Virus record (IMG/VR): IMGVR_UViG_3300026986_000001 | Location: 1 to 47,725 of that record | DNA from: a virus | Length of the DNA: 47,725 bases | Reading direction: 5' to 3' (one strand) | Shown here: piece after piece, positions 9,331-45,504 of the stretch | How positions within the stretch are numbered: the stretch's first letter is position 1 | How the letters are laid out: each line of letters begins with the position of its first letter | Program-made: the position numbers and the translations under genes | The notes under the pieces: model-generated | Databases searched by the model: none | Told to the model about the DNA's origin: nothing | What the model saw: only the letters and a program-made list of their open reading frames with translations

Positions 9331-9404
9331 GGCGTTGTAGCTCAACTGGGAGAGCACCCGCCTGAAGAGCGGGTCTTGTCTCGGTTCGACTCCGAGCAAC
9401 GCCA
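9331..9404 (+). tRNA. tRNA-Phe (anticodon GAA)
   Basis: Cloverleaf read by hand. Acceptor GGCGTTG/CAACGCC, D arm GCTC-AACTGGGA-GAGC, anticodon arm CCCGC-CTGAAGA-GCGGG, T arm CTCGG-TTCGACT-CCGAG, discriminator A, no encoded CCA. The variable region is 6 nt, one longer than usual. Confidence 0.8.
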
Positions 9405-31950: not shown

Positions 31951-34900
31951 ATGGCTCGCATAATTGATGACTTCGAAGACGGCGATACCGCCGGGTGGAG
32001 CGTTACTGGCGGCACGTTCACCGCCGACGGGTCAAACCCTATCGACGGCGCGTACACCGGCAAATTCCAGACCCGGGCCGGCGTCAAGGACACCGCAACA
32101 GCACCCGAGATCGCCGAACAGCAAGATGACTGGTCGATAAAACTCCGGCTGGACACCACCAGCAACAACAGCGCCGACTACTTCTCCGTCTCGCCGCGAG
32201 CAGAATTCGGCACCACTCCCTTCACACTCGTCTTCTATCACAACGGCGACGTATATTACGAGTCGTCGGCCGAGTCAACCCAACAACTCACCTCCTACAA
32301 CACGGGAGAAACCATCCACATCACGGCGACAATCCAGTACGCCGATAATACCGTCGACCTCTCTATCGACGGCTCGCAAACAGGCGTCACAGACGTCACG
32401 AATCTCGGCATCGATGGCGGGTTCGGTGGGGTCGCCAGCACGGATATCATCGTCGATAGTAGCGCCAGCGGATCACAGTGGACGCTCTCACTCGACACCA
32501 TCAAAGCCGTCCCCAAGCCCCTCGACGAGCCCGAGTCGGTCACGCAGACCGTTACCGGCGCCGACTCGGCTACGCCGAGCTGGAGTGCGCCGAGCACGGG
32601 ATCTTCGCCCAGTGGATATGACGTGGACCGACGCCTCGACGGTGGCTCGTGGACGCGCGTCGTCTCCGACCACCCCGAGACCAGTTACGACGACAGCTTC
32701 GCCAGCAGCGCAGACACCGTCCAGTACCGGGTGCGCTCCACAGCCAGCTACGGCGCCAGCGACTGGGTATCCACGTCGACGAAGTCCACGAATATCACGA
32801 CGCTGTCGGCCTCAACTACGACCGGAGACAGTATCGACCTCAACTGGGACGCCGTCGACGACACCACCGACTACGATGTCCTCTTCGCGGAAGCCTCGGG
32901 CAGCACCGAGAGCGACTACAGCATCGACCAAACAGTCTCGGGGACGTCGGCGACTCTCAGCGGGCTGGAGGATGGCGAACGGTACTACGCGCGGGTCGTT
33001 GCTCGCTATCCCGGACCGGATAGTCTCTCACCGGAGGCGGACGCGACGACCGTGCTGGCGGCGCCATCGCTGGACTCCGTCGACGACAGCGTCGAGGACG
33101 AACTCACGGTCAACTACTCGCTCCCGGATGACTCGACGGACGGTGACGTCCTCGTGGAGCTCTCGGATGACGGCGGCAGCACTTGGGGTGACTCGACGAC
33201 GGTGGCGGACCTCTCGGCGACAACGGCGACCATCACTGGCCTCCCGGATGGCGTTACGTACACGGCGCGAGTGACGCGGCGGACCGACCACGCGGAAGCG
33301 GTCTCGGGGACGCAAACTGCGACGACGAGTCTCCCGGCGGCGACCGACCTCACGGTCGGCGCGATTGATGCGGCGAGTATCGAGCTCTCGGGCTGGACTG
33401 TCGAGGCGGACAACGGCCAGCAGCGCGTCGAGTACAAGCAATCGGATGCCTCACAGTGGCAGACGGACGCCTCCACGCTCGGATTGTCGACGACCACCGA
33501 GGTCATCGATGGACTCCTGACTGGTGAGGCGTACGACATCCGGGTCGTGACGTCGACGCCGGACACGGAGACTGCGTCCGCGGTTGTCTCGGCGACTACG
33601 ACGTTGCCGGACGCCGTAGCGCCGACGCTCGGCAACGGCGTCAAGGACGAGGTTGCCGTCGAGTTCCTCGATGTCACGACCAACGGCGTCTACCGCATCC
33701 AGATTCGGGAGACTGGGCAGGCGTCGTGGGATTCGAGCGCTACGGGGTTCGCCGAACAGGTCATTTCGTCCGATGGGGACACCTCCGACACCGTCAGCAC
33801 GATCTTTACTGGCCGCGAGGACGGCGAGGAGTACGCGGTCCGACTCCGCTCCGAAACCGAACACGCGACGGGCGCGTGGACGTCGCCGACGAGCATCGTC
33901 ACGAAGTTCCCCGGCGCCGCGAACCTCCAACTCGACCCCGACGCAGCGGTTACGGAGACGTCGGTGCCGCTTGTGTGGATTGACCAGTCCGACAACGAGG
34001 ACGGCTTCGATATCGAGCGCCGGCGGCGCTACGAGGCGGGATGGGGTGAGTGGACTGTCGTCGCAACTCGCGGGCCGAACACCGAGAGTCACGTCGACGA
34101 CACCGCCCTCCCGGGCAACGAGTACGAGTACCGCGTCCGAGCGTACACCGACGACACAGAAGCCTACTCCGCAGTAGTCGCGGTGTCGACGCCCGGCCTT
34201 GACGTGGAGAGCAAACGCATCCCCGCCAGTGGGTGGTACGTCGAGATCGAGCATCCGGACGCGAACACGCCGCTGACGCCGCGCGTGGTCGGCTCCCCGC
34301 AGAAGAATCCGGCAGTAAACGGTCTTCCCCGCCTTCGGGTCCCCGTTCCTAAGGACGACAAGTGGAACGACACGGGGTTCGAGGACGCCCCGATGCGTGT
34401 CTGGGAAGATGGTATCAGGCAGCCCGTCGACGAGCTCGTGCGCCGCGAGCAAGAGCCCAACCAGACTCTGCTCGTCGGCGAAGGTGGCACCGCGCTCAAA
34501 CAGAGCGTGCAGCGTGACATCGTCGAGGAGCGTGCTGATGTCTTCGTTCGTAATCTCGTCCCAGCCGAGACCCCGTACTCAACGAACGTTGACGAGCCGA
34601 CGGGGACCGCCCAAGAGGATGTCCCCCAGCAGGGTATCGACACCCAGTCCGACTACGAGGCCCTGTTGGCAGACCCGATCCCCGCAACCGAGCCCGCACG
34701 CCTGAACAGTGATGGGACCGTCGAGACGCTGGCCACGCTGGATGCTGCGATTCCGTGGGGCTCGTGGGAGTACCGGAGCAGCGTCGTCGAAATCGCTGAA
34801 ACCACCAGCGGGTCGGACTACATCAACAACCGCGCACTGCGACTGACTGGCGTTTCTGGGACCATCGAGGCGTGGACGACTGTCGGTCTTGAGTACGACC

Positions 34901-37439: not shown

Positions 37440-37835
37440 TCACTCGATTGCGTAGCCCCACTCCCGCAGGACATCCGCAACCTCGTCGGCGTGCTCAAGG
37501 CCGACCAAGAGTGCAGCCTCGCGCAGATCTGCCTTCTTCACAGACTCACCGAGCAGCTGCTCAACGTCACTCTTCCCCGAGCGTTCAGCGTCTACAGTGG
37601 ACGCCTGCAGGTGAAGCTGCACCGTCTTCTCACGCCCGTCCGTGATGCTCCCTCGACGATGAATCCACGGCAGCCGCGCCCTCGTTGTCGTGTCACCGCC
37701 AGCAGCCGCCGACCCACCCGTCGACTCTACGGACGAGTCCTGGTCCACGTCGCGACGACCGTCAGCGTCGTCCGCCTCAAAACTATCATCGTCGTCCCAG
37801 TCGTCGTCCGCAGCGCCGCGCTTGAATCCACCCAT
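37440..37835 (-). CDS. small protein co-transcribed with ParA (candidate centromere-binding adaptor)
   Basis: ATGA overlap with parA. Acidic disordered N-terminus and a structured C-terminal roughly 60 aa. The role is inferred from operon position. Confidence 0.6.
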   Translation of the reverse strand: MGGFKRGAADDDWDDDDSFEADDADGRRDVDQDSSVESTGGSAAAGGDTTTRARLPWIHRRGSITDGREKTVQLHLQASTVDAERSGKSDVEQLLGESVKKADLREAALLVGLEHADEVADVLREWGYAIE

Positions 37836-38722
37836 CAGGCAGTCACCTCGGTTTCATCCTCGTCGTCGAGCGCACCGGGCTCGGGTGGGTTCGGGGCCTC
37901 GATTCCGCCAACGTCCTCGATGAACCGCGCGATGTCGTCAAACTGCGCGAGCGTATCCACTTCGTAGTCTCGGCGCTGCCCGCGATGCTCACGCACGTAC
38001 CGGAACGCCGAGCACTGTTGCCGCCAGCACCCCTCCATCAGCGATGTCCGGTCCCCGATCACTGCGGGGACGTCGTACGGGATCTCCTCCAGGAGGTCTC
38101 GCTGGTCGCTCGTCCCCTTCACCCCAACGGGGACAGCGCCGAGGACACCGACGTCAATGGATAGTTGATCTGCGAAGTTCCGGGCGAGTTCCTCCAGGCC
38201 CTCAACTGCTGCTTGCCCTTTCGCGCTCGGTTCGACTGGGAGGAAGAGGTTTCGCGTGGCGTAGATCGCGTTGTAGAGGTGTGCGCCCTCGGTTGCCGGC
38301 GGGTCGACGATGACGACGTCGTACTCGCTGGGGATGCCGGCGTCTTGGAGGACGCGCCGCAGCTGGGCGTGGACGTTGTACGCCTCGCCGAAGTCCTCTG
38401 CTTTCTGCTTCTCGCGACGGAGGTGGTCTTCGAGGTCTGAGAGTGCGTTGTGTTCGGGGATGATGTCGACGCCTTCGGCGGTCCGAATAAGGTCATGGAA
38501 TGGGCCGCGTGGCGAGTCGACCATGTGGCGGACGATGTTGTCGGCCGACGGGTCTGCGCGGTCGTCGTCGACGTCGAACAGGCGGCTGAGGTTGCCGTCC
38601 TGGGGGTCGAGTGGGATGACGAGGACGTCGAGGCCGGCTCGGCGATGCGCGACGGCGAGGTTCGCAGCAAGCGTCGTTTTGCCGACGCCGCCTGCCTCCG
38701 AGTACACGGTGTATGCGAGCAT
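37835..38722 (-). CDS. parA: ParA/Soj-family partition ATPase
   Basis: N-terminal P-loop YSEAGGVGKTTLAANLA, VIPLDPQ, VVIVDPPA (Walker B-like). Size 295 aa. Confidence 0.85.
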   Translation of the reverse strand: MLAYTVYSEAGGVGKTTLAANLAVAHRRAGLDVLVIPLDPQDGNLSRLFDVDDDRADPSADNIVRHMVDSPRGPFHDLIRTAEGVDIIPEHNALSDLEDHLRREKQKAEDFGEAYNVHAQLRRVLQDAGIPSEYDVVIVDPPATEGAHLYNAIYATRNLFLPVEPSAKGQAAVEGLEELARNFADQLSIDVGVLGAVPVGVKGTSDQRDLLEEIPYDVPAVIGDRTSLMEGCWRQQCSAFRYVREHRGQRRDYEVDTLAQFDDIARFIEDVGGIEAPNPPEPGALDDEDETEVTA

Positions 38723-38764: not shown

Positions 38765-38830
38765 CATATCTAAGACACTTGTCTAAGACGCTCATCTAAG
38801 ATACTAAGATAAGTCCCCAAGATAAGTTAC
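38765..38830. promoter_or_regulatory. Iteron array upstream of parA (candidate centromere/operator)
   Basis: TCTAAGAC at 38769 and 38782 and TCTAAGAT at 38795, with exact 13-bp spacing, followed by AAGATAAGT twice (38806, 38820). An AT-rich TATA-like stretch at 38741-38755 lies about 27 nt upstream of the parA start. Confidence 0.6.
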
Positions 38831-38858: not shown

Positions 38859-38906
38859 CCCTTAACCAACGCTCGGCTGAATGATACTCGCGTGTTGGTT
38901 AAGACT
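38859..38906. repeat. Hairpin element copy A (CCTTAACCAAC - spacer - GTGTTGGTTAAGACT)
   Basis: 10-bp perfect stem cttaaccaac/gttggttaag, and the loop contains gctcggct. It lies about 75 nt downstream of the 3' end of the minus-strand operon. The partner copy is at 42576-42623. Confidence 0.85.
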
Positions 38907-38978
38907 CAGCGAGAGGTAGCAGAAGTGCGAAAGCTATCGCAGTCCGCGGTTTACGAGTGTAACCGCCCGAGAGAAAAT

Positions 38979-39284
38979 CTAAACCGGGTACTCAACGTCG
39001 AACTGTTCCTTCGCCTTCTCGCCGGGGTACCACCACATGCTGTTCTCGTCGTGCTCCAGCCACCCGGCTTGCGCCATCACGGAAAGGGTCCGGCGAATCG
39101 TTCGGTCCTGTGACCGACGGAGGCCAGCTCGACGACGGATACGCCACGCCTGAAACGGAAGCGGACGATCAGCGAGCAGGGAGAGTGCCGCGTCCCAGAC
39201 GCGGTCGCGGGTAGTCGCGTCGTCAATACTGTCCGCGACTGCGTCGGCTTGTTCGTACGGGGCTGTGCTATTGGTCTCGGACAT
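38979..39284 (-). CDS. small winged-helix-like protein (101 aa)
   Basis: TIRRTLSVMAQAGWLEHDE resembles a recognition helix plus wing. Mixed acidic and basic composition. Confidence 0.6.
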   Translation of the reverse strand: MSETNSTAPYEQADAVADSIDDATTRDRVWDAALSLLADRPLPFQAWRIRRRAGLRRSQDRTIRRTLSVMAQAGWLEHDENSMWWYPGEKAKEQFDVEYPV

Positions 39285-39289
39285 ATCTG

Positions 39290-39802
39290 TCAGTCCTCGC
39301 GTTCATCAGTAGGCTTGTTCTCACGCGCGACAGCCATCTTCTCCTCAACCTCTTCCTGGAACGCCTCGCTGCCTTCCGCCTGCTCAATGAGGTGGTCGAT
39401 GAAGTTGTTCACCGCGAAGGTCGGCTGGAAGTTCTCCTGGAGAATCAGGGTCACGCCGACTGTGGTGTAGTCCTCGATCTCGACGTCGTCGACGTAGCCA
39501 TGCTCGGGCACTGGCTTGCACTTCACGTCGACTGGCCGCGCCTGCCACTTCCCGACCGACTTGGGGATGGAGATGTCGGCCTGCCAGTGCGTCGTCTCGT
39601 AGCTCGTGAGCCGTGCTTCAAAGCCGTCGCGCTCCCAGACGAGCTCGTCGTCCTCGATGCGGACGTTGTCACCGGGTGCCTCCTCGGGGTACTCCTCCCA
39701 TTCGGGGAGGACGCGGACGTCCTGCTGGGGTTCCACGAACTCGCGGTCCATGACCTCGTCGGGCGTCAGTTCTTCTTCCTCGATTTGGTCCTTCGTGACC
39801 AT
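39290..39802 (-). CDS. hypothetical acidic protein (170 aa)
   Basis: Very acidic ORF. TATA-like GGTTATACGG (39827-39833, minus strand) lies about 27 nt upstream of the ATG, which suggests a leaderless transcript. Confidence 0.75.
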   Translation of the reverse strand: MVTKDQIEEEELTPDEVMDREFVEPQQDVRVLPEWEEYPEEAPGDNVRIEDDELVWERDGFEARLTSYETTHWQADISIPKSVGKWQARPVDVKCKPVPEHGYVDDVEIEDYTTVGVTLILQENFQPTFAVNNFIDHLIEQAEGSEAFQEEVEEKMAVARENKPTDERED

Positions 39803-39895
39803 ACGCTACCAACACCCCGAAACGCCGTATAACCGCGTCTCAGCGCACACATCTGGCCGTTTCGAGGACACGCCGTGTCCGCTCATCAGTCGTAG

Positions 39896-40264
39896 CTACT
39901 CGCCATCGAGAATCGCCTCCATGCGGTCGAGGGCGGCTTCGAGGTCGTCACCGTTCAGTTGTTCGTGTGCGTGTTGGGCGTCCGCGAGGGCGTCGCGGAG
40001 CGCGTCGACGTCGACGGTCGTGTCTTCGGTCTCGGTGCCGGGGCGAGGGTCGTCCACCAGCTCGTAGAGGCCGGTTTCGAGGCGGTCGACGTGACCGTGT
40101 TCGCTGAGTCGTTTGAGGCGTTGGCTGACGTAGCTGCGGTCGGTGTCGGTTCGTTCGGCGATGAACGTTGGGGTGCCGCGGCCGTCTTGGAGTTCGTTGA
40201 GGACGCGGCGGTCTGCGTCGTTGAGGTCGTCGGGGTCGAGCACTGGGTGTTGCTCCGCGTGCAT
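39896..40264 (-). CDS. winged-helix transcription regulator (candidate repressor)
   Basis: DADRRVLNELQDGRGTPTFIAERTDTDRSYVSQRLKRLSEHGHVDRLETGLYEL is a MarR/ArsR-type wHTH. First gene of the minus-strand arm of a divergent promoter region. Confidence 0.75.
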   Translation of the reverse strand: MHAEQHPVLDPDDLNDADRRVLNELQDGRGTPTFIAERTDTDRSYVSQRLKRLSEHGHVDRLETGLYELVDDPRPGTETEDTTVDVDALRDALADAQHAHEQLNGDDLEAALDRMEAILDGE

Positions 40265-40443
40265 ACACTAACTTTCTTTTCCAACCCTAAGTAATTACTG
40301 TCTATTACAACAGTAATTGGTAACGCTCCGTTAGTTATTAGTGGGTGGCGCTACAAGACTGTAGTAGAGCCCGAGGACGCCGCCCAGAATGGAAAGGGTG
40401 GCCGCGTGCCATCAACACGCGACCTCGGGTCCACAACAGACCC
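40265..40443. promoter_or_regulatory. AT-rich divergent promoter region with palindromic operator
   Basis: AATTACTGT-ctattaca-ACAGTAATT at 40293-40318. The left arm overlaps the TATA-like stretch about 27 nt upstream of the 40264 start. A further AT-rich ttagttattag is at 40331-40341. Confidence 0.6.
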
Positions 40444-40890
40444 ATGAGCACCCACACACCGAAAACGCAAGACGGTATCGAAGCACTCCACAAGGAAACC
40501 GACCCGCGGCCGGTGCCCGAAGCGTGGCTCGACGACGCCCCGCACGCCAACGTCGACGCCGACGAAACGCGGTACTACGCCGTCCTCCACACCATCGAGA
40601 AGAGCGTCGCCGACGACCACGACGTCCTCGCCGGCCACAAGCAGGGGCGTGCCGAGGACTGGACCGTCCACGTCCTCTTCGTGCGCGCTGACGGCAAGCG
40701 CCGCGTCGAACAGCCCTACGACGCCCGCGTCATCGAGACCGCCGACGGCCTCGACGTCACGCCCCGCGACTTCCGCGCGAGCATCGCCGTCGACGGCCGC
40801 GACATCACGCCCGTCTCCCGCCCCCGCACGACCGACATCGAGCGCGCTCTGAGCGAGCTCCACAACATCGAGGTGGCCGACGATGAGTAA
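40444..40890 (+). CDS. hypothetical protein (148 aa, MSTHTPKTQD...)
   Basis: ATG at 40444. The upstream part of the track ORF is Arg-rich. Acidic product. Confidence 0.75.
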   Translation: MSTHTPKTQDGIEALHKETDPRPVPEAWLDDAPHANVDADETRYYAVLHTIEKSVADDHDVLAGHKQGRAEDWTVHVLFVRADGKRRVEQPYDARVIETADGLDVTPRDFRASIAVDGRDITPVSRPRTTDIERALSELHNIEVADDE

Positions 40891-41206
40891 CGGATTCGCG
40901 CACAAGCTCACGTACGCCGGCAGCGACCCCTACGGGCCTGAAGAGGACCGTGAGGACATCACTCACGAGGAGTACGAGCTCCTCACGCAGGACGAGGCCT
41001 ACCGGAAGCTCGCGGAACTCCGGTACATCTCCGATGTCCTCGAGGCCGACCTCGACGGCCGCGACGACGTTCCCGACGCCACGCAAGACGCCCTGTACGA
41101 AATCTACTTGGGGCGGGACGCGCCGGTAAAGCGCGCCGTCGACGCGTACGTTGACGAGTGGCTGGCCGACCACCGCGACGGTGAAGAACCGGAGGTGTCG
41201 GCGTGA
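40883..41206 (+). CDS. hypothetical acidic protein (107 aa)
   Basis: Overlaps the upstream stop. Acidic helical sequence. Confidence 0.75.
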   Translation: MSNGFAHKLTYAGSDPYGPEEDREDITHEEYELLTQDEAYRKLAELRYISDVLEADLDGRDDVPDATQDALYEIYLGRDAPVKRAVDAYVDEWLADHRDGEEPEVSA

Positions 41207-41679
41207 TGCTATCCACGCAGGACCTTCGTGGCCGCCAGAGCGAGCTGGCCGCGCACTTCGCCAGCGACTTCGACGCGACCCTCCTCCACAACCGCGTCCA
41301 CGAACGCGTCGGCGAGGACAACGAGACGGAGCACATCTTCGACGCCGCCGTGGACGTTGCCCGCGTCCGCGACGTCCGCCGCGACCGGCTTGGGGACGGC
41401 AGCGAGTTCGGCGACTCCTCGCCCGCCGTCGCTCGGCTCTCATACGTCGGCCGCCAGCGCGCGCTGGAGGTCGTCGCCGAGACCTGCGCCGAGGTCCTCA
41501 CCGAGGCGACCGAGTGGACCGATGCGTGGGACCCGGAGGCTATCGAGGCAGCGCGCATCGAGGCGGCGCGCTGGCTCCAACACCAGACCAACGCCGCGTC
41601 CCGCGCCGGCGTCCTCGACGTACTGGCGGACTACAGCGACGACCCCCGGATGGACATCGCGCTCGGTGATTCGGCATGA
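41203..41679 (+). CDS. hypothetical protein (158 aa)
   Basis: GTG at 41203 or ATG at 41206, 8 nt after GGAGGTG. Ends in the conserved junction cggtgattcggcATGagc. Confidence 0.75.
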   Translation: MMLSTQDLRGRQSELAAHFASDFDATLLHNRVHERVGEDNETEHIFDAAVDVARVRDVRRDRLGDGSEFGDSSPAVARLSYVGRQRALEVVAETCAEVLTEATEWTDAWDPEAIEAARIEAARWLQHQTNAASRAGVLDVLADYSDDPRMDIALGDSA

Positions 41680-41894
41680 GCTACGAGTGCGAGAACTGCG
41701 GCGCCGCGTACCAGTTCGGCCCCGCCGGCGAATCCCTCGTCTCCATCAGCATCTTCCACAACGGCGCGAGTGGCGAGGACTACACGGCCCAGATCTGTCC
41801 GGACTGCTACCACGACCTCCTCGAAGAGTTCCGCGACGCCGTCAACGCGCCCGACCGCGACGAAGACAACGAGGACACGGAGGGCGATAGCTGA
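41676..41894 (+). CDS. small zinc-ribbon protein (72 aa)
   Basis: CENCG...CPDC. Confidence 0.7.
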   Translation: MSYECENCGAAYQFGPAGESLVSISIFHNGASGEDYTAQICPDCYHDLLEEFRDAVNAPDRDEDNEDTEGDS

Positions 41895-42208
41895 TGGCGA
41901 CGAGCAGCCACGCCGGCCAACCGGCGGACCTCTCCGAATTGGATGCGCGCGCGCTGACGGAAGCAATGACGGTGCTCCCGGATGCGCCCGGAATGTACGT
42001 GGTTGTCTCCGGCAGCGGCAGCGAGTACGTCGTCGACGCCCGCGGCGGCGCGTGTACGTGTCCGGACGCCCGCTACCGGGACCGGACGTGCAAGCACCAG
42101 CGCCGCGTCGCCTACGAGCTCGGCGAGCGCGACCTCCCGGACTGGGCGGACCACAGCAGTCTCGACGCGCACTTCCGCGAGTTCGTCACTCCCTCCGAGA
42201 ACGCATGA
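41894..42208 (+). CDS. SWIM-type zinc-finger protein (104 aa)
   Basis: CTCPDARYRDRTCKH fits the CxCx(n)CxH pattern. Confidence 0.7.
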   Translation: MATSSHAGQPADLSELDARALTEAMTVLPDAPGMYVVVSGSGSEYVVDARGGACTCPDARYRDRTCKHQRRVAYELGERDLPDWADHSSLDAHFREFVTPSENA

Positions 42209-42528
42209 GAGACCCGCTGAAGAACACGAAATATCGGTCGTTCACGCGGTCGGACACGAACTTCACGCTCGTCCGCTCGGAGACGCCCATCGACGTCGAC
42301 GGCTACAAGCTCGGGGAGATGACCGGGCTCGTCCAGTGTGACGAGTGCGAGCAGACTGGTCAGAACGTTGACGAGATACCGCACCGGGATGGCTGCAGTC
42401 AGAGCGATGTCCACTCGTGGTACTGGCTGGTCGTCCACGGGTTCATCGACGCGACCGACGTTCCGAGCAGGTATCAGGACGCCATGCCGGATGTGGCCGC
42501 GCCGTCGTCGGCGCCGTACAACGACTAA
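42205..42528 (+). CDS. hypothetical protein with CDEC motif (107 aa, MRDPLKNTKY...)
   Basis: ATG at 42205 in an ATGA overlap with the previous stop. The upstream part of track ORF 41770..42528 is Arg/Pro-rich. Confidence 0.7.
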   Translation: MRDPLKNTKYRSFTRSDTNFTLVRSETPIDVDGYKLGEMTGLVQCDECEQTGQNVDEIPHRDGCSQSDVHSWYWLVVHGFIDATDVPSRYQDAMPDVAAPSSAPYND

Positions 42529-42575
42529 CCCCGCAGTTCCGACTGCAGTTTTCGCCCTCGTGGGCTTCAACGAAT

Positions 42576-42623
42576 CCTTAACCAACAGCCGAGCGTGACG
42601 CCGCCGCCGTGTTGGTTAAGACT
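42576..42623. repeat. Hairpin element copy B (CCTTAACCAAC - spacer - GTGTTGGTTAAGACT)
   Basis: Same 10-bp stem and same flanks as copy A. The loop contains agccgagc, the reverse complement of the copy A octamer. It lies about 50 nt after the end of the plus-strand operon and about 35 nt before the orc1/cdc6 TATA-like box. Confidence 0.85.
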
Positions 42624-42653
42624 GCTTGGGCCGGGGGCCGGAATTCACCCCGG

Positions 42654-42666
42654 ATGTTTTACCCTC
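42654..42666 (+). promoter_or_regulatory. TATA-like box GTTTTACCC upstream of orc1/cdc6
   Basis: The T-run starts 29 nt upstream of the ATG at 42686, which fits a leaderless haloarchaeal transcript. The same TTTTACC core recurs at 43754. Confidence 0.45.
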
Positions 42667-42685
42667 ATAGCCGCGATTCGCTGTC

Positions 42686-43732
42686 ATGATCACCAAGCCC
42701 GCGGTCTTCGAGGACGACCACCTCCCCGACCGGCTCCTCCATCGGCACACCGAGAAGCGGGAGCTCGCACGCGGGTTTAAGCCCATCACCCGCGGAGAGC
42801 CCAGCGAGTACGTTCTCCTCGCTGGCCCCAGCGGCGTTGGGAAGACAGCACTCGCGCGGAGCAGCCTTGAAGACGTGAGTGACTTCGGGAGCGTCGACAC
42901 CGGGTTCGTGCGCGCGATGGGGAAGCGGACAGGGTCGATTCTCCGCGACATCATCGACGAGCACCCCCGCGAGATGGACGTCAGTCACTCCACGCCTGTC
43001 GAGGAGCTACCGAAGCGACTCGCCGCGGCGACCACGCGCCCGTACGTCGTCGTGCTTGACGAGGCCGACGACCTCCCCAGTACGGATGTCCTCGACGCGC
43101 TGCGGCGGTGCCGGTGGGTGTCCGTCGTCGTGGTGACCCATGACCAGACCCGGTTCGAGTCTCGCACCAGTGCGCCGTTCTCGATTACGCTCAACGTCGA
43201 CCGCTTCAAGAGCGCGGAGCTGGCGGACATCCTCGAAGCGCGCGCCCACGAGGGCCTGCAGGGTGGCGTGGTCTCTCGTGGACAGCTGGAGTCCATCGCG
43301 GACACGGTCGCGGGCGTTGCCCGCTGGGGTATCCAGTCGCTGCGAGCGGCCGCGGAGCTCGCCAGCGAGCGCGGGCACTCGACTATCAAGTCCCACGACG
43401 TGCGAGACTGCTACGAGCGGGCGCGCGGCCGGATTCGCGCGTCGAACCTCCAGTCGCTCCCCGTGCATCATCACGTTCTGTACGAAATCGTGCGGCAGGC
43501 GGGCGCGTGCTCGGGGGAGGAGGTCCACGACCAATATGAGCGAGTGGCCGACAGGGTCTACGATGGCCTTACTGTCGCGCCGGTCGGCCGGCGGAGCCGG
43601 CGGAACAAGCTGGCGAAGCTCGCTGCGTACGACTTGATTGACTTCGCCGAGGAACGTGGGGGGCGCAGGTACCGTGTGCTCGACGAGGACTTGGAGTCCG
43701 AAGTGGTGGCGTTGCCGTCGGTGCGTGCGTAG
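42686..43732 (+). CDS. orc1/cdc6: Orc1/Cdc6-family AAA+ replication initiator
   Basis: N-terminal VFEDDHLPDRLLHR, Walker A GPSGVGKT, Walker B VVVLDEADDL. The C-terminal part with VLYEIV...RRSRRNKLAKLAAYDLI fits the winged-helix domain. Confidence 0.85.
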   Translation: MITKPAVFEDDHLPDRLLHRHTEKRELARGFKPITRGEPSEYVLLAGPSGVGKTALARSSLEDVSDFGSVDTGFVRAMGKRTGSILRDIIDEHPREMDVSHSTPVEELPKRLAAATTRPYVVVLDEADDLPSTDVLDALRRCRWVSVVVVTHDQTRFESRTSAPFSITLNVDRFKSAELADILEARAHEGLQGGVVSRGQLESIADTVAGVARWGIQSLRAAAELASERGHSTIKSHDVRDCYERARGRIRASNLQSLPVHHHVLYEIVRQAGACSGEEVHDQYERVADRVYDGLTVAPVGRRSRRNKLAKLAAYDLIDFAEERGGRRYRVLDEDLESEVVALPSVRA

Positions 43733-45052: not shown

Positions 45053-45504
45053 TGCAGTGTGATACCTGCGGCGCCGACCTCCCAGATGATCCGCGTGACG
45101 CCGTCGAAAACGACCGCCTTGACGAAGTGGTCGCCCACATCTACGACCCCGAAGAAGAGTCGTTCGTCCTCTCCGAGACAGCCTACTTCTGTGACCTCAC
45201 GTGCGCCGCCGAAGCCACGCTTCTGACCGAACCCGAAGAAGTCACTGAAGCATCGAAGGCCACGTTGATGCGCCACAACAACGGCCTCGTGTTCTTCCTC
45301 GGCGAGTACGCCCCGGAGATGGAGTACGAGGTCTTCGACGAAGGCGGCACTATCCAGACGCGAACCTGCGAGCGAATCGCAGTCTTCGACCTCGCCACTC
45401 GCATGACTAAGGAGACCTTCCAAGAGAAGGTCACCGGCGGACGTAACATTCAGACCGTACTGGCAGACCGCTTCGGCATCCCCGTCGACGGAGGTGACGC
45501 GTGA
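45052..45504 (+). CDS. hypothetical protein with N-terminal CxxC (150 aa)
   Basis: MQCDTCG...CDLTC. TGATG junction preceded by GGAGGTGA. Confidence 0.75.
   Translation: MQCDTCGADLPDDPRDAVENDRLDEVVAHIYDPEEESFVLSETAYFCDLTCAAEATLLTEPEEVTEASKATLMRHNNGLVFFLGEYAPEMEYEVFDEGGTIQTRTCERIAVFDLATRMTKETFQEKVTGGRNIQTVLADRFGIPVDGGDA

Follow-up and report, generated by a model that had tools for sequence, protein, structure and literature searches.

A split palindrome recurring between genes on the mobile DNA of Halobacteria, with two copies in a virus genome: a candidate boundary site

Two copies of a split palindrome in the virus DNA analysed here (the window, a stretch of 47,725 nt) are, by sequence comparison, members of a large family restricted to Halobacteria and carried mainly on mobile DNA. 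The family has apparently not been described before. Comparison of its members shows, at the sequence level, that the sequence of each 9-11-nt arm is conserved independently of the other arm, and that the arms are held about 33-34 bp apart centre to centre, roughly three helical turns, with the DNA between them free to vary. We tentatively favour the reading that a two-headed protein would bind the element as duplex DNA at two independent half-sites, and that the element would act as a boundary or insulator of transcription units.

Two copies in the virus window

A first-pass annotation had placed a pair of hairpin elements at 38859-38906 and 42576-42623, which is correct to within 1-2 nt. The two copies, called A and B, their half-sites and the neighbouring genes are as follows.

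37835..38722, minus strand: parA partition ATPase gene, downstream of A; Pfam AAA_31 and CbiA above cut-offs
38861..38903, no strand assigned: element copy A, CTTAACCAAC, 23-nt spacer, GTTGGTTAAG; between the minus-strand operon stop (38979) and the parA start (38722)
38861..38870, plus strand: A left half-site, CTTAACCAAC, followed by G (a purine)
38894..38903, minus strand: A right half-site, reading CTTAACCAAC on the minus strand; flank ACT
38979..40264, minus strand: unit encoding 101-aa and 170-aa proteins and a 122-aa MarR-family wHTH protein, with A following its 3' end (gene map)
40444..42528, plus strand: unit of six small genes, with B following its 3' end (gene map)
42577..42620, no strand assigned: element copy B, CTTAACCAAC, 24-nt spacer, GTTGGTTAAG; between the plus-strand operon stop (42528) and the orc1/cdc6 start (42686)
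42577..42586, plus strand: B left half-site, followed by A
42611..42620, minus strand: B right half-site; flank ACT
42686..43732, plus strand: orc1/cdc6-type AAA+ gene, downstream of B; Pfam Cdc6_lid and AAA_16

Copy A reads cCTTAACCAAC-gctcggctgaatgatactcgcgt-GTTGGTTAAGact (arms 38861-38870 and 38894-38903) and copy B CTTAACCAAC-agccgagcgtgacgccgccgccgt-GTTGGTTAAGact (arms 42577-42586 and 42611-42620). The exact 10-mer occurs four times in the 47.7 kb, these being the four arms of A and B, and allowing up to one mismatch gives five matches where 0.5 are expected, a number reached in 0 of 100 shuffles. Together with the family found elsewhere, this bears out the earlier claim of a real, non-chance element shared by two sites. 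The loop length of 21-22 nt holds if the right arm takes the "GT" extension proposed with it, and becomes 23 and 24 nt with 10-mer arms.

The copies do lie at the 3' ends of two divergent operons, as first described. A ends 75 nt past the stop of the minus-strand gene at 38979-39284, and its start is 138 nt from the parA ATG (38722), on the upstream side. Copy B follows the stop at 42528 by 48 nt and ends 65 nt ahead of the orc1 ATG (42686). The orc1 gene has its own TATA-like TTTTA at 42657-42661, 27 nt ahead of the ATG, within a conserved promoter block. The minus-strand unit is syntenic with BJ1 and Humcor1, and its 122-aa wHTH protein (Pfam MarR_2, 5.6e-08) is proposed to be a phiH1-repressor-like regulator; a switch module has been described in SNJ2 (PMC10123103). 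A SWIM zinc-finger match at 41894-42208 in the plus-strand unit is weak and below threshold, and the parA product scores 26.2 bits against the ParA model, just under the 27.1-bit cut-off.

The loops of A and B carry the octamers GCTCGGCT and AGCCGAGC, which are exact reverse complements, as had been noted; shuffled loop pairs share a match of at least 8 nt in 0.9% of cases. This complementarity is idiosyncratic: among 48 same-locus element pairs the window pair alone has a loop match of that length. The first-pass annotation had suggested that both operons' transcripts would present the same octamer in their 3' hairpins, or that the two loops could kiss. In the transcript of its own operon, however, the octamer would lie on the 3' side of the loop for A and on the 5' side for B, and the complementarity is conserved neither in L156, the closest relative with both copies, nor in other pairs that share a locus. 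Neither suggestion is supported.

A family on haloarchaeal mobile DNA

The search of other haloarchaeal viruses and plasmids for arm pairs that had been proposed recovered the same motif from 35 stretches of viral contigs and from at least 120 stretches of genomes, the latter count being a lower bound. About 110 of the at least 120 listed genome stretches belong to Halobacteria, from dozens of genera and with locus GC between 0.43 and 0.68. Among the matches listed, the carriers are almost all Halobacteria plasmids, proviruses and viruses, and the number of off-taxon matches is close to the chance expectation. Halobacterium phage ChaoS9 has three copies, all unannotated. The 3.7-kb bracket seen in the window is not special to its module: throughout the haloarchaeal mobilome, copies of the element separate many gene units that are unrelated to one another.

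No copy was found in the close relatives phiH1, phiCh1, Humcor1, Harhisp1 and SNJ2 (for the last three, in the regions fetched), and that these viruses manage without the element counts against a boundary protein. In BJ1 a single degenerate copy was found, about 5.5 kb away from its orc1. The phiH1 genome, which lacks a copy, is transcript-mapped.

Where relatives do carry the element, the arms persist. L156 has GTTAACCAAC-N25-GTTGGTTAAG at the position analogous to A, and at the position orthologous to B both L156 and a further relative, L157, have unchanged arms around a diverged spacer. L157 was retrieved through its Orc1 protein rather than the motif and so provides a check unbiased by the motif search; it keeps the element at the same place, with the left arm TTTAACCAAC. 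Conservation in these relatives applies to the arms, which are kept in L156 and L157, and not to the complementarity of the loop octamers, which is not conserved in L156.

Arms conserved as sequence around a free spacer

Written as a consensus, the family reads a-G-T-CTTAACCAAC-R-(N21-22)-Y-GTTGGTTAAG-A-C-t and spans 43-44 bp. The arms TTAACCAAC plus the purine are invariant, although in most loci the search pattern itself fixed them; this invariance is thus partly ascertainment, and the unbiased evidence comes from the flanking positions, L157 and relaxed scans. The spacer is 23 or 24 nt long in 78% of copies and varies freely in sequence. Total lengths of 44 nt (n=64) and 43 nt (n=63) dominate over 45 nt (n=11) and 42 nt (n=7), with a few copies of 31-33 or 35 nt. 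In a logo of 137 unique elements the arm is followed by A in 84% and by G in 15%, and no spacer position is strongly conserved, with a weak G enrichment (35-52%) at inner spacer positions 5-9. Orthologous sets retain both arms and both flanks around a scrambled spacer. The flank consensus is ACT, and the flanks form no direct repeats but prolong the palindrome. Single arms are essentially absent.

Somewhat less probable than a duplex site, and on balance doubtful, is an RNA (or single-stranded DNA) hairpin with a 10-12-bp stem and a loop of about 20 nt at the transcript end, acting as a factor-dependent terminator, 3'-stabiliser or processing site whose stem sequence is read by a host factor. 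Either strand of A and B is predicted to fold into a 10-12-bp stem (-18.8 to -25.2 kcal/mol, z -2.6 to -4.2), and the palindromic arms would give the same stem in the transcript of either strand; this potential for a stable hairpin on both strands also counts against the boundary protein. Whole elements fold slightly better than versions with shuffled spacers (mean z = -0.66, or -0.3 with the closing bases kept). The folding and covariance analysis that had been suggested thus returned a stable fold and no covariation. Of the pairs made by the first and last spacer bases, which adjoin the arms, 118 are A/T, 24 A/C, 19 G/T and 1 G/C; the 119 Watson-Crick pairs among them compare with 123 expected. 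The outer flank positions form 54 such pairs where 56 are expected, and 51 where 53.5 are expected. Pairing at variable positions beside the stem is therefore not above what base frequencies predict, and no compensatory changes preserving pairs were seen there. In the arms, two relaxed scans found 0 compensated double changes among 30 and 73 GC-rich matches, with changes in one arm only, and the outermost arm base varies without compensation. The longest stem within the spacer averages 4.17 nt, against 4.10 in shuffles, so the loop is unstructured, yet its length is tightly fixed, which a hairpin does not require. Rfam covariance models found a tRNA-Phe as the sole gathering-level match in the window and nothing at A or B even at E <= 10, in line with the earlier view that the motif is no described element.

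Placement relative to genes

Nearly all copies (163 of 172) lie between predicted genes, the other 9 falling inside an ORF predicted by our own gene caller. Of the flanking gene pairs, 78 are in tandem, 35 converge and 33 diverge. From a stop codon to the element the median is 37 nt, and from the element to the next start it is 118 nt (Wilcoxon p = 4.6e-6). Placement close to 3' ends is equally expected of a terminator, a 3'-stabiliser or an attC-like site. For the hairpin, the positions just past stop codons and between convergent genes are favourable, but in about a quarter of cases the element is upstream of both its neighbours, which diverge. There, either start is at least about 67 nt away, and given the distance to both starts the element is probably untranscribed. 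The T-run, a known archaeal termination signal, is also missing: TTTT occurs within 25 nt in 6.8% of element flanks and in 3.4% of control windows. A terminator or processing hairpin, one of the roles first envisaged, thus stays among the candidates and has gained no specific support from a T-run or compensatory change.

The same placement makes it highly improbable that the element is a compact bidirectional promoter. The haloarchaeal TATA consensus is YTTAWA, and the CTTAAC of the arm agrees with it at five of six positions. Yet start codons show no preference for any one distance from the element (only 3 of 149 are found 20-40 nt outside an arm), convergent-gene gaps hold 24% of copies, and orc1 has its own TATA element, described above.

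An insertion sequence of the IS1595 family has inserted exactly at the outer arm edge, the base of the would-be cruciform, and the structure could thus be extruded in vivo. This would suit a hairpin and tells against the boundary protein, and it also recalls the IS1111-type elements that target attC sites.

A cassette recombination site resembling the integron attC, or a looser hot spot of module exchange, in which each unit would have its own 3' site and a recombinase acting in trans would shuffle units, appears unlikely. Integron attC sites lie at or over the stop codon, with a private centre and conserved inner AAC/GTT triplets, and the element resembles them in all three respects. The attC R''/R' core-site consensus is RYYYAAC/GTTRRRY, and AACCAAC and GTTGGTT each agree with it at six of seven positions. 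Copies bracket units of one to six genes, toxin-antitoxin units among them. In L047, L148 and L152 an AbiEi/AbiEii unit separates ArdC from the gene that follows, and in L082 this unit is absent. Some breaks in homology coincide with an arm, as in L089 and between L040 and L072, and L134 has four to five copies around an integrase gene. Against this, other breaks fall 19-29 nt off the arm (L142 versus L152), and alignments end within 20 nt of elements in 11% of cases versus 1.8% at random, about the rate of any intergenic position. From the comparison of module boundaries proposed earlier, a recombination site, while possible, has drawn no specific support. The window has no tyrosine recombinase, only 8-9 of about 137 loci have an integrase, the arms form a perfect palindrome with neither extrahelical bases nor asymmetry, the spacer length is fixed, and the second (L) box is absent. 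The term "Halobacteriota" does not occur in the text of the archaeal integron paper. Copy-and-paste spread is likewise unsupported, similar spacers having homologous flanks in 71 of 76 pairs.

No protein family is common to all element loci, the largest being Orc1 (21-22 of about 137) and SWIM (about 19 of about 137), a point against the boundary reading. The positions of B and A, abutting orc1 and parA, raise the possibility of an Orc1/Cdc6-binding site (a non-canonical ORB pair, as an origin or Orc1 regulatory target) or a ParA-system partition site, which we consider very unlikely. A copy touches the orc1 gene in seven viral loci, ChaoS9 has orc1 and three copies where phiH1 and phiCh1 have neither, and by our reckoning two Orc1 monomers would be accommodated by inverted sites spaced about 33 bp. 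Adjacency to orc1 is nonetheless barely above random (viral loci, 6 versus 2.6 expected; genomic loci, 4 versus 5.4), the figures for parA are 2 versus 1.7 and 0 versus 0.8, and the majority of copies adjoin unrelated genes. The Orc1 proteins of Humcor1, Harhisp1 and SNJ2 have a near-identical wH recognition helix with no copy in the fetched regions, and the degenerate copy of BJ1 lies elsewhere. ORBs are defined by features that include a 20-40-bp repeat, a G-string in halophiles and an AT-rich unwinding element (PMC3528665). Here the arms are 10-14 bp, the G-string and AT-rich unwinding region are missing between them, and those 23-24 bp are GC-rich in A, B and most copies. The ORB-like identity first suggested for the site next to orc1 is accordingly not upheld.

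Comparison with known element classes

Bacterial REP/BIME elements are similarly short, strictly intergenic palindromes, typically right after gene ends, that occur in many copies, serve as boundary, terminator or protein-binding sites and are targeted by particular insertion sequences. REPs, however, are conserved over their full length, species-specific and present in hundreds of chromosomal copies, whereas the haloarchaeal element consists of two parts around a spacer that is fixed in length and free in sequence, is identical class-wide, and occurs in few copies per replicon, mainly on mobile DNA. The attC sites share the position at the 3' end of each gene unit, inverted end boxes, frequent toxin-antitoxin units and site-specific insertion sequences, but they are 57-141 nt long and variable in length, have R and L boxes with extrahelical bases that set strand choice, and need an IntI integrase and an attI platform; the haloarchaeal element showed none of these features. 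KorB OB sites of IncP-1 plasmids and parS-type sites also consist of one invariant intergenic palindrome, repeated on a mobile replicon so as to lie between its modules for replication, partition and maintenance; they are contiguous palindromes of 13-16 bp with the reader encoded on the same replicon, whereas 23-24 bp separate the haloarchaeal half-sites and no protein encoded in cis was found to be shared. Archaeal ORB pairs are inverted repeats up- or downstream of an adjoining orc1/cdc6, but they flank the unwinding element and track the Orc1 family. Paired uptake sequences of Neisseria and Haemophilus combine a constant 9-12-mer, inverted pairs just past genes and a sequence read by a protein with the hairpin as a by-product; they differ in also occurring singly, in thousands of chromosomal copies, and in having short, variable loops. 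We know of no DNA uptake system in Halobacteria.

Several further classes were considered and are not supported. An intrinsic terminator, marked by an oligo-T/U tract at the point of termination (in bacteria combined with a hairpin), does not agree with the T-run frequencies given above or the ACT flank consensus. A MITE or REPIN, which would have whole-length copies at unrelated sites and a target-site duplication, is at odds with the homologous flanks of similar spacers and with flanks that extend the palindrome and form no direct repeats. The arms are inverted 10-mers and not the direct repeats of about 30 nt that, in a CRISPR mini-array or solitary repeat unit, flank a spacer matching foreign DNA; a search for spacer matches outside elements in 1.36 Mb of mobilome DNA, a weak test, found none that were significant except one of 17/17 nt (E = 8e-4). 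The 23-24-bp spacer does not correspond to the 6-8-bp crossover region of a dif/lox-type tyrosine-recombinase core.

A candidate boundary site

Because the arms are conserved as sequence and not as base pairs, protein binding is the most likely role, and of the functions first put forward it is the one that the comparative data (independent half-sites, fixed spacing, no covariation) favour. For the duplex boundary site, the simplest putative reader would be a sequence-specific protein with two DNA-binding heads, such as a dimer; as no gene is common to all loci, it may be host-encoded. Its task would be to mark or insulate the boundaries of transcription units, for example by a roadblock-type halt of read-through or by insulation of a topological or regulatory kind. 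A and B would in this virus isolate the wHTH/Orc1 lysogeny-switch module from the parA partition operon on one side and from orc1 on the other.

Copies A and B in the window

The window represents a haloarchaeal tailed virus or provirus; its structural genes lie between about 10 and 36 kb, and it also encodes methyltransferases. Our gene map, built by GC-frame and acidity scoring, reproduced the gene layout of the first-pass annotation, which had described two hairpins bracketing divergent regulatory operons.

Features in the window
9331-9404, tRNA-Phe (GAA) gene
38861-38903, element A: CTTAACCAAC-(23 nt)-GTTGGTTAAG, then ACT
38979-40264, minus strand, operon
39896-40264, minus strand, MarR-family wHTH protein, proposed to be phiH1-repressor-like
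40444-42528, plus strand, divergent small-gene operon
42577-42620, element B: the arm pair of A with a 24-nt spacer, then ACT
42686-43732, plus strand, orc1/cdc6

The 10-mer that forms the arms has exactly four matches in the 47.7-kb window, all of them the arms of A and B; with one mismatch allowed there are 5 matches against 0.5 expected, a number reached in 0 of 100 shuffles. These shuffles, together with scans finding the family elsewhere, rule out chance duplication and establish the paired element as real. The complementary octamers in the two spacers, which had been proposed as a shared or kissing loop, are a 0.9% event in shuffles, but the window pair is alone among 48 co-resident element pairs in having them and the octamer is missing from the nearest relative to carry both elements (L156); they are not a conserved part of the element.

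A family across the haloarchaeal mobilome

Looking for the motif in other haloarchaeal viruses and plasmids had been suggested from the window sequence. We scanned viral contigs, and one genome per prokaryotic species, with the pattern CTTAACCAAC-N10-35-GTTGGTTAAG, which matched 35 stretches in the viral contig collection and at least 120 in the prokaryotic genomes. Among the 120 genome matches listed, about 110 are in Halobacteria, spread over dozens of genera and sitting on plasmids, small contigs and a few chromosomes; the handful of bacterial matches among those listed mostly have odd spacings and equal the chance expectation in number. Total element length is 44 nt in 64 elements, 43 nt in 63, 45 nt in 11 and 42 nt in seven, with a thin tail at 31-35 nt, and locus GC ranges from 0.43 to 0.68. 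The family is a Halobacteria-wide, mobilome-associated split palindrome of 43-44 bp, more general than could be seen from one virus.

Halobacterium phage ChaoS9 (MK310226.1) has three copies, and neither that record nor the paper describing the phage (PMC6471424) notes them. In the related phages phiCh1 and phiH1, the latter with mapped transcripts, the right arms have 0 copies.

Copies in ChaoS9 (in brackets, position in the fetched locus L158)
33054-33097 (L158:2055), after vapC
45386-45428 (L158:14387), overlapping the orc1 stop codon
52587-52630 (L158:21588), after the repH-marR-CxxC unit

A full-text search of the open literature found no archaeal paper with the arm sequences, annotated phage records held nothing near-identical to the window, and annotated plasmids gave short matches only. 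Rfam and ARAGORN were empty at A and B, ruling out a known RNA family or tRNA-like element. The earlier impression that the motif is not a described element thus holds for Rfam, annotated records and the open literature searched.

Half-site anatomy and proposed mode of recognition

Folding 137 unique elements onto one half-site gave the profile a (45%) G (47%) T (54%), then C TTAACCAAC, then R (A 84%, G 15%), with no strongly conserved position further in than this purine. Since the outermost arm base varies freely in a fuzzy search of the fetched loci (ATTAACCAAC...GTTGGTTAAC, TTTAACCAAC...GTTGGTTAAC and others), the hard core is TTAACCAAC plus the purine. At eleven orthologous sites from different genera, both flanks are conserved and the arms intact while the spacers are scrambled, as is also the case for copy B compared with its orthologues in the relatives L156 and L157. 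L157 was fetched via its Orc1 protein rather than via the motif and is therefore an unbiased confirmation of the element. TTCGA/TCGAA is found in 14 of the 172 spacers, where shuffles predict 5.1, and it often adjoins an arm (e.g. L134, L022, L055); G is weakly enriched 5-9 nt inside each arm.

The first-pass annotation had suggested a covariance analysis, and we found no covariation at the varying positions near the arms. For the bases that open and close the spacer, 118 elements have A/T, 24 A/C, 19 G/T and 1 G/C, giving 119 Watson-Crick pairs against 123 expected from base frequencies; the two outer flank positions give 54 and 51 pairs against 56 and 53.5 expected. Spacer positions in hairpin register have no consistent pairing excess, and the longest internal spacer stem averages 4.17 nt compared with 4.10 in shuffled spacers, so that a structured spacer is ruled out. 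Two relaxed scans, leaving two arm positions free on each side, gave, among GC-rich contigs, 27 and 43 canonical copies, three one-arm variants each, and no compensated arm variants of this family. Because the search pattern fixed the arms in most loci, unbiased evidence here comes only from the positions next to the arms, from L157 and from the relaxed scans.

The lack of covariation, with the variants in these scans confined to one arm, indicates that each half-site is kept to consensus independently, and independent half-sites around a fixed-length, sequence-free spacer suggest the duplex site of a two-headed protein rather than a need for a hairpin. Of the mechanisms considered, sequence-specific read-out of the two independent half-sites in duplex DNA has the best support. 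An RNA hairpin is a live rival: a 10-12-bp stem is predicted for either strand (-19 to -25 kcal/mol), bearing out the perfect stem first noticed, but this reading sits poorly with the absence of covariation, the unstructured spacer and the lack of a T-run after the element (6.8% vs 3.4% in controls).

Other palindromes were seen among the fetched loci. A Halorussus halobius provirus contig (L134:1228-3065) has four to five copies flanking a tyrosine integrase gene (1664-2839) on both sides, one copy being a doubly compensated variant, CTTACCAAAC...GTTTGGTAAG; the same contig has a AAGGTTAACCTT palindrome at about 1464-1490. A second palindrome family, TTAACCATCGGT-N16/17-ACCGATGGTTAA, was found on contigs of GC 0.55-0.61, at L209:3873-3912 and on about 20 other viral contigs (L211, L219-L223, L228 and others). 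Because its variants include fully compensated ones (GG/CC and GC/GC), it looks structure-selected, unlike the family studied here.

Position relative to genes

By our own gene caller, 163 of 172 unique elements lie between predicted genes and 9 inside an ORF. Genes on either side run in tandem in 78 cases, convergently in 35 and divergently in 33. In tandem cases the median distance is 37 nt from the stop upstream and 118 nt to the start that follows, with the stop nearer than the start in 72% (p = 4.6e-6); convergent cases lie close to one stop or the other (median 8 nt), and divergent cases keep at least ~67 nt from either start. Copies are often 1.4-1.8 kb from each other, with units of one to six genes between them, as in L047, L148 and L152, where they separate ArdC, AbiEi-AbiEii, a 272-aa SWIM protein together with a wHTH protein, and a 107-aa protein, followed by Orc1. 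Given this widespread bracketing, the 3.7-kb module delimited by A and B is one instance of a general habit. Judged from position only, the element would have a boundary or insulator function.

No neighbouring gene is universal: Orc1 is found at 21-22 of ~137 loci, ParA at 15 and an integrase at 8-9. No window protein is common to all element loci, and the window has no recombinase or integrase, which speaks against a reader protein (one recognising the element) encoded in cis. The most widely shared neighbours are proteins with weak, sub-threshold matches to the SWIM zinc finger, at 9 viral and 10 genomic loci (e.g. window 41894-42208 and 272-aa proteins in L047, L127 and others). SWIM-type proteins are also present in Humcor1, with no element copy in the 13-kb region examined.

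The first-pass annotation had also raised protein-binding sites, ORB-like and next to orc1/cdc6. Protein binding is what the independent half-sites and fixed spacing best support, but the ORB-like identity did not survive. ORBs are defined by a G-string and an unwinding element (PMC3528665), both of which the element lacks. Orc1 relatives whose wH helix is nearly the same do without it (0 copies in the regions examined of Humcor1, Harhisp1 and SNJ2; one degenerate copy, elsewhere, in BJ1), and adjacency to orc1 is near random (6 vs 2.6 expected at viral loci, 4 vs 5.4 at genomic loci). A link to ParA was rejected on random adjacency. Guide-like spacers or loops found no support, there being no spacer targets in 1.36 Mb of mobilome DNA (a weak test) apart from one 17/17-nt match (E = 8e-4).

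Recombination and insertion sequences

The suggestion that the elements are recombination sites fared unevenly. An AbiE unit bounded by copies shows real presence/absence between loci, in favor of an attC-like role, which is possible; against it, unit breaks fall at an arm in some cases and 19-29 nt off in others, and neither a linked integrase nor a recombinase in the window was found. Integron attC sites are defined by extrahelical bases, an L box, length variation and a linked integrase, all of which the element lacks. Between loci, alignment ends fall within 20 nt of elements in 11% of cases vs 1.8% at random, an enrichment about that of any intergenic position, and several striking "mosaics" trace to a single IS1595-family insertion sequence (Pfam DDE_Tnp_IS1595) that has inserted there; breakpoint enrichment is thus no proof of recombination. 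A copy-and-paste MITE is ruled out since similar spacers are paired with homologous flanks in 71 of 76 pairs.

The IS1595-family element (315-aa transposase, terminal repeat CGCTCTTATGTAG; e.g. L116:3330-4425) sits exactly 6 nt outside an arm at six different elements (L048, L074, L077, L093, L111, L116). Its 8-bp target duplication in L116, CGCCATCT, overlaps the first two arm bases. Insertion at the element edge looks targeted.

The region bracketed by A and B

The window Orc1 shares 46% identity with its ChaoS9 counterpart and 42-45% with those in BJ1, Humcor1 and Harhisp1. Like BJ1 and Humcor1, the window combines a repressor-like wHTH gene with a divergent operon of small genes and Orc1. 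This arrangement resembles the SNJ2 module, whose wHTH repressor and viral Orc1 govern the switch between lysogeny and induction (PMC10123103). The bracketed block is therefore probably the virus's switch region, with A probably at its junction with the partition operon and B at that with orc1. The operator palindrome of the SNJ2 switch differs in sequence from the element (PMC10123103).

On the gene map, 138 nt separate A from the parA start downstream of it (38722, minus strand). The parA product scores above the Pfam cut-offs of the AAA_31 and CbiA models and just under that of the ParA model. The AT-richest stretch between A and this start holds three CTAAGA direct repeats (38783, 38796, 38804) and AGATAAG (38820-38826), a candidate parA operator or centromere-like site at 38783-38826.

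On the other side, orc1 has its own TATA-like TTTTA box at 42657-42661, 27 nt before the ATG, the spacing of a leaderless gene. This box and the lack of any constraint on element-to-start-codon distance argue against the element being a core promoter. In the region 42630-42688, TTTTA lies within a block, GGGGyCGGAAkTCACCCsGGrTGTTTTAyC, that is kept in L156 and L157 and whose GC-rich part could be an operator.

Implications for haloarchaeal mobile elements

It is a long shot that the element is the cis site of an undescribed, class-wide mobilome system, either an integron-like cassette exchange unlinked to its integrase or a dedicated boundary/insulator protein. Under the latter, a host- or MGE-encoded protein would divide the genomes of viruses and plasmids into units regulated independently of one another, and the boundary system would also attract targeted IS insertion. 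In practice the element can be used as a marker when haloarchaeal mobile DNA is annotated, and the question is tractable, ChaoS9 being cultivable and having three copies. If the boundary reading is right, a single exact cis signal would mark gene-unit ends in haloarchaeal viruses and plasmids across dozens of genera. It would provide a way to study how mobile elements of archaea insulate their transcription units or terminate them, a process that is, to our knowledge, poorly understood beyond oligo-T tracts. It would also help account for the separation of lysogeny-switch, partition and replication modules, and may bear on module exchange.
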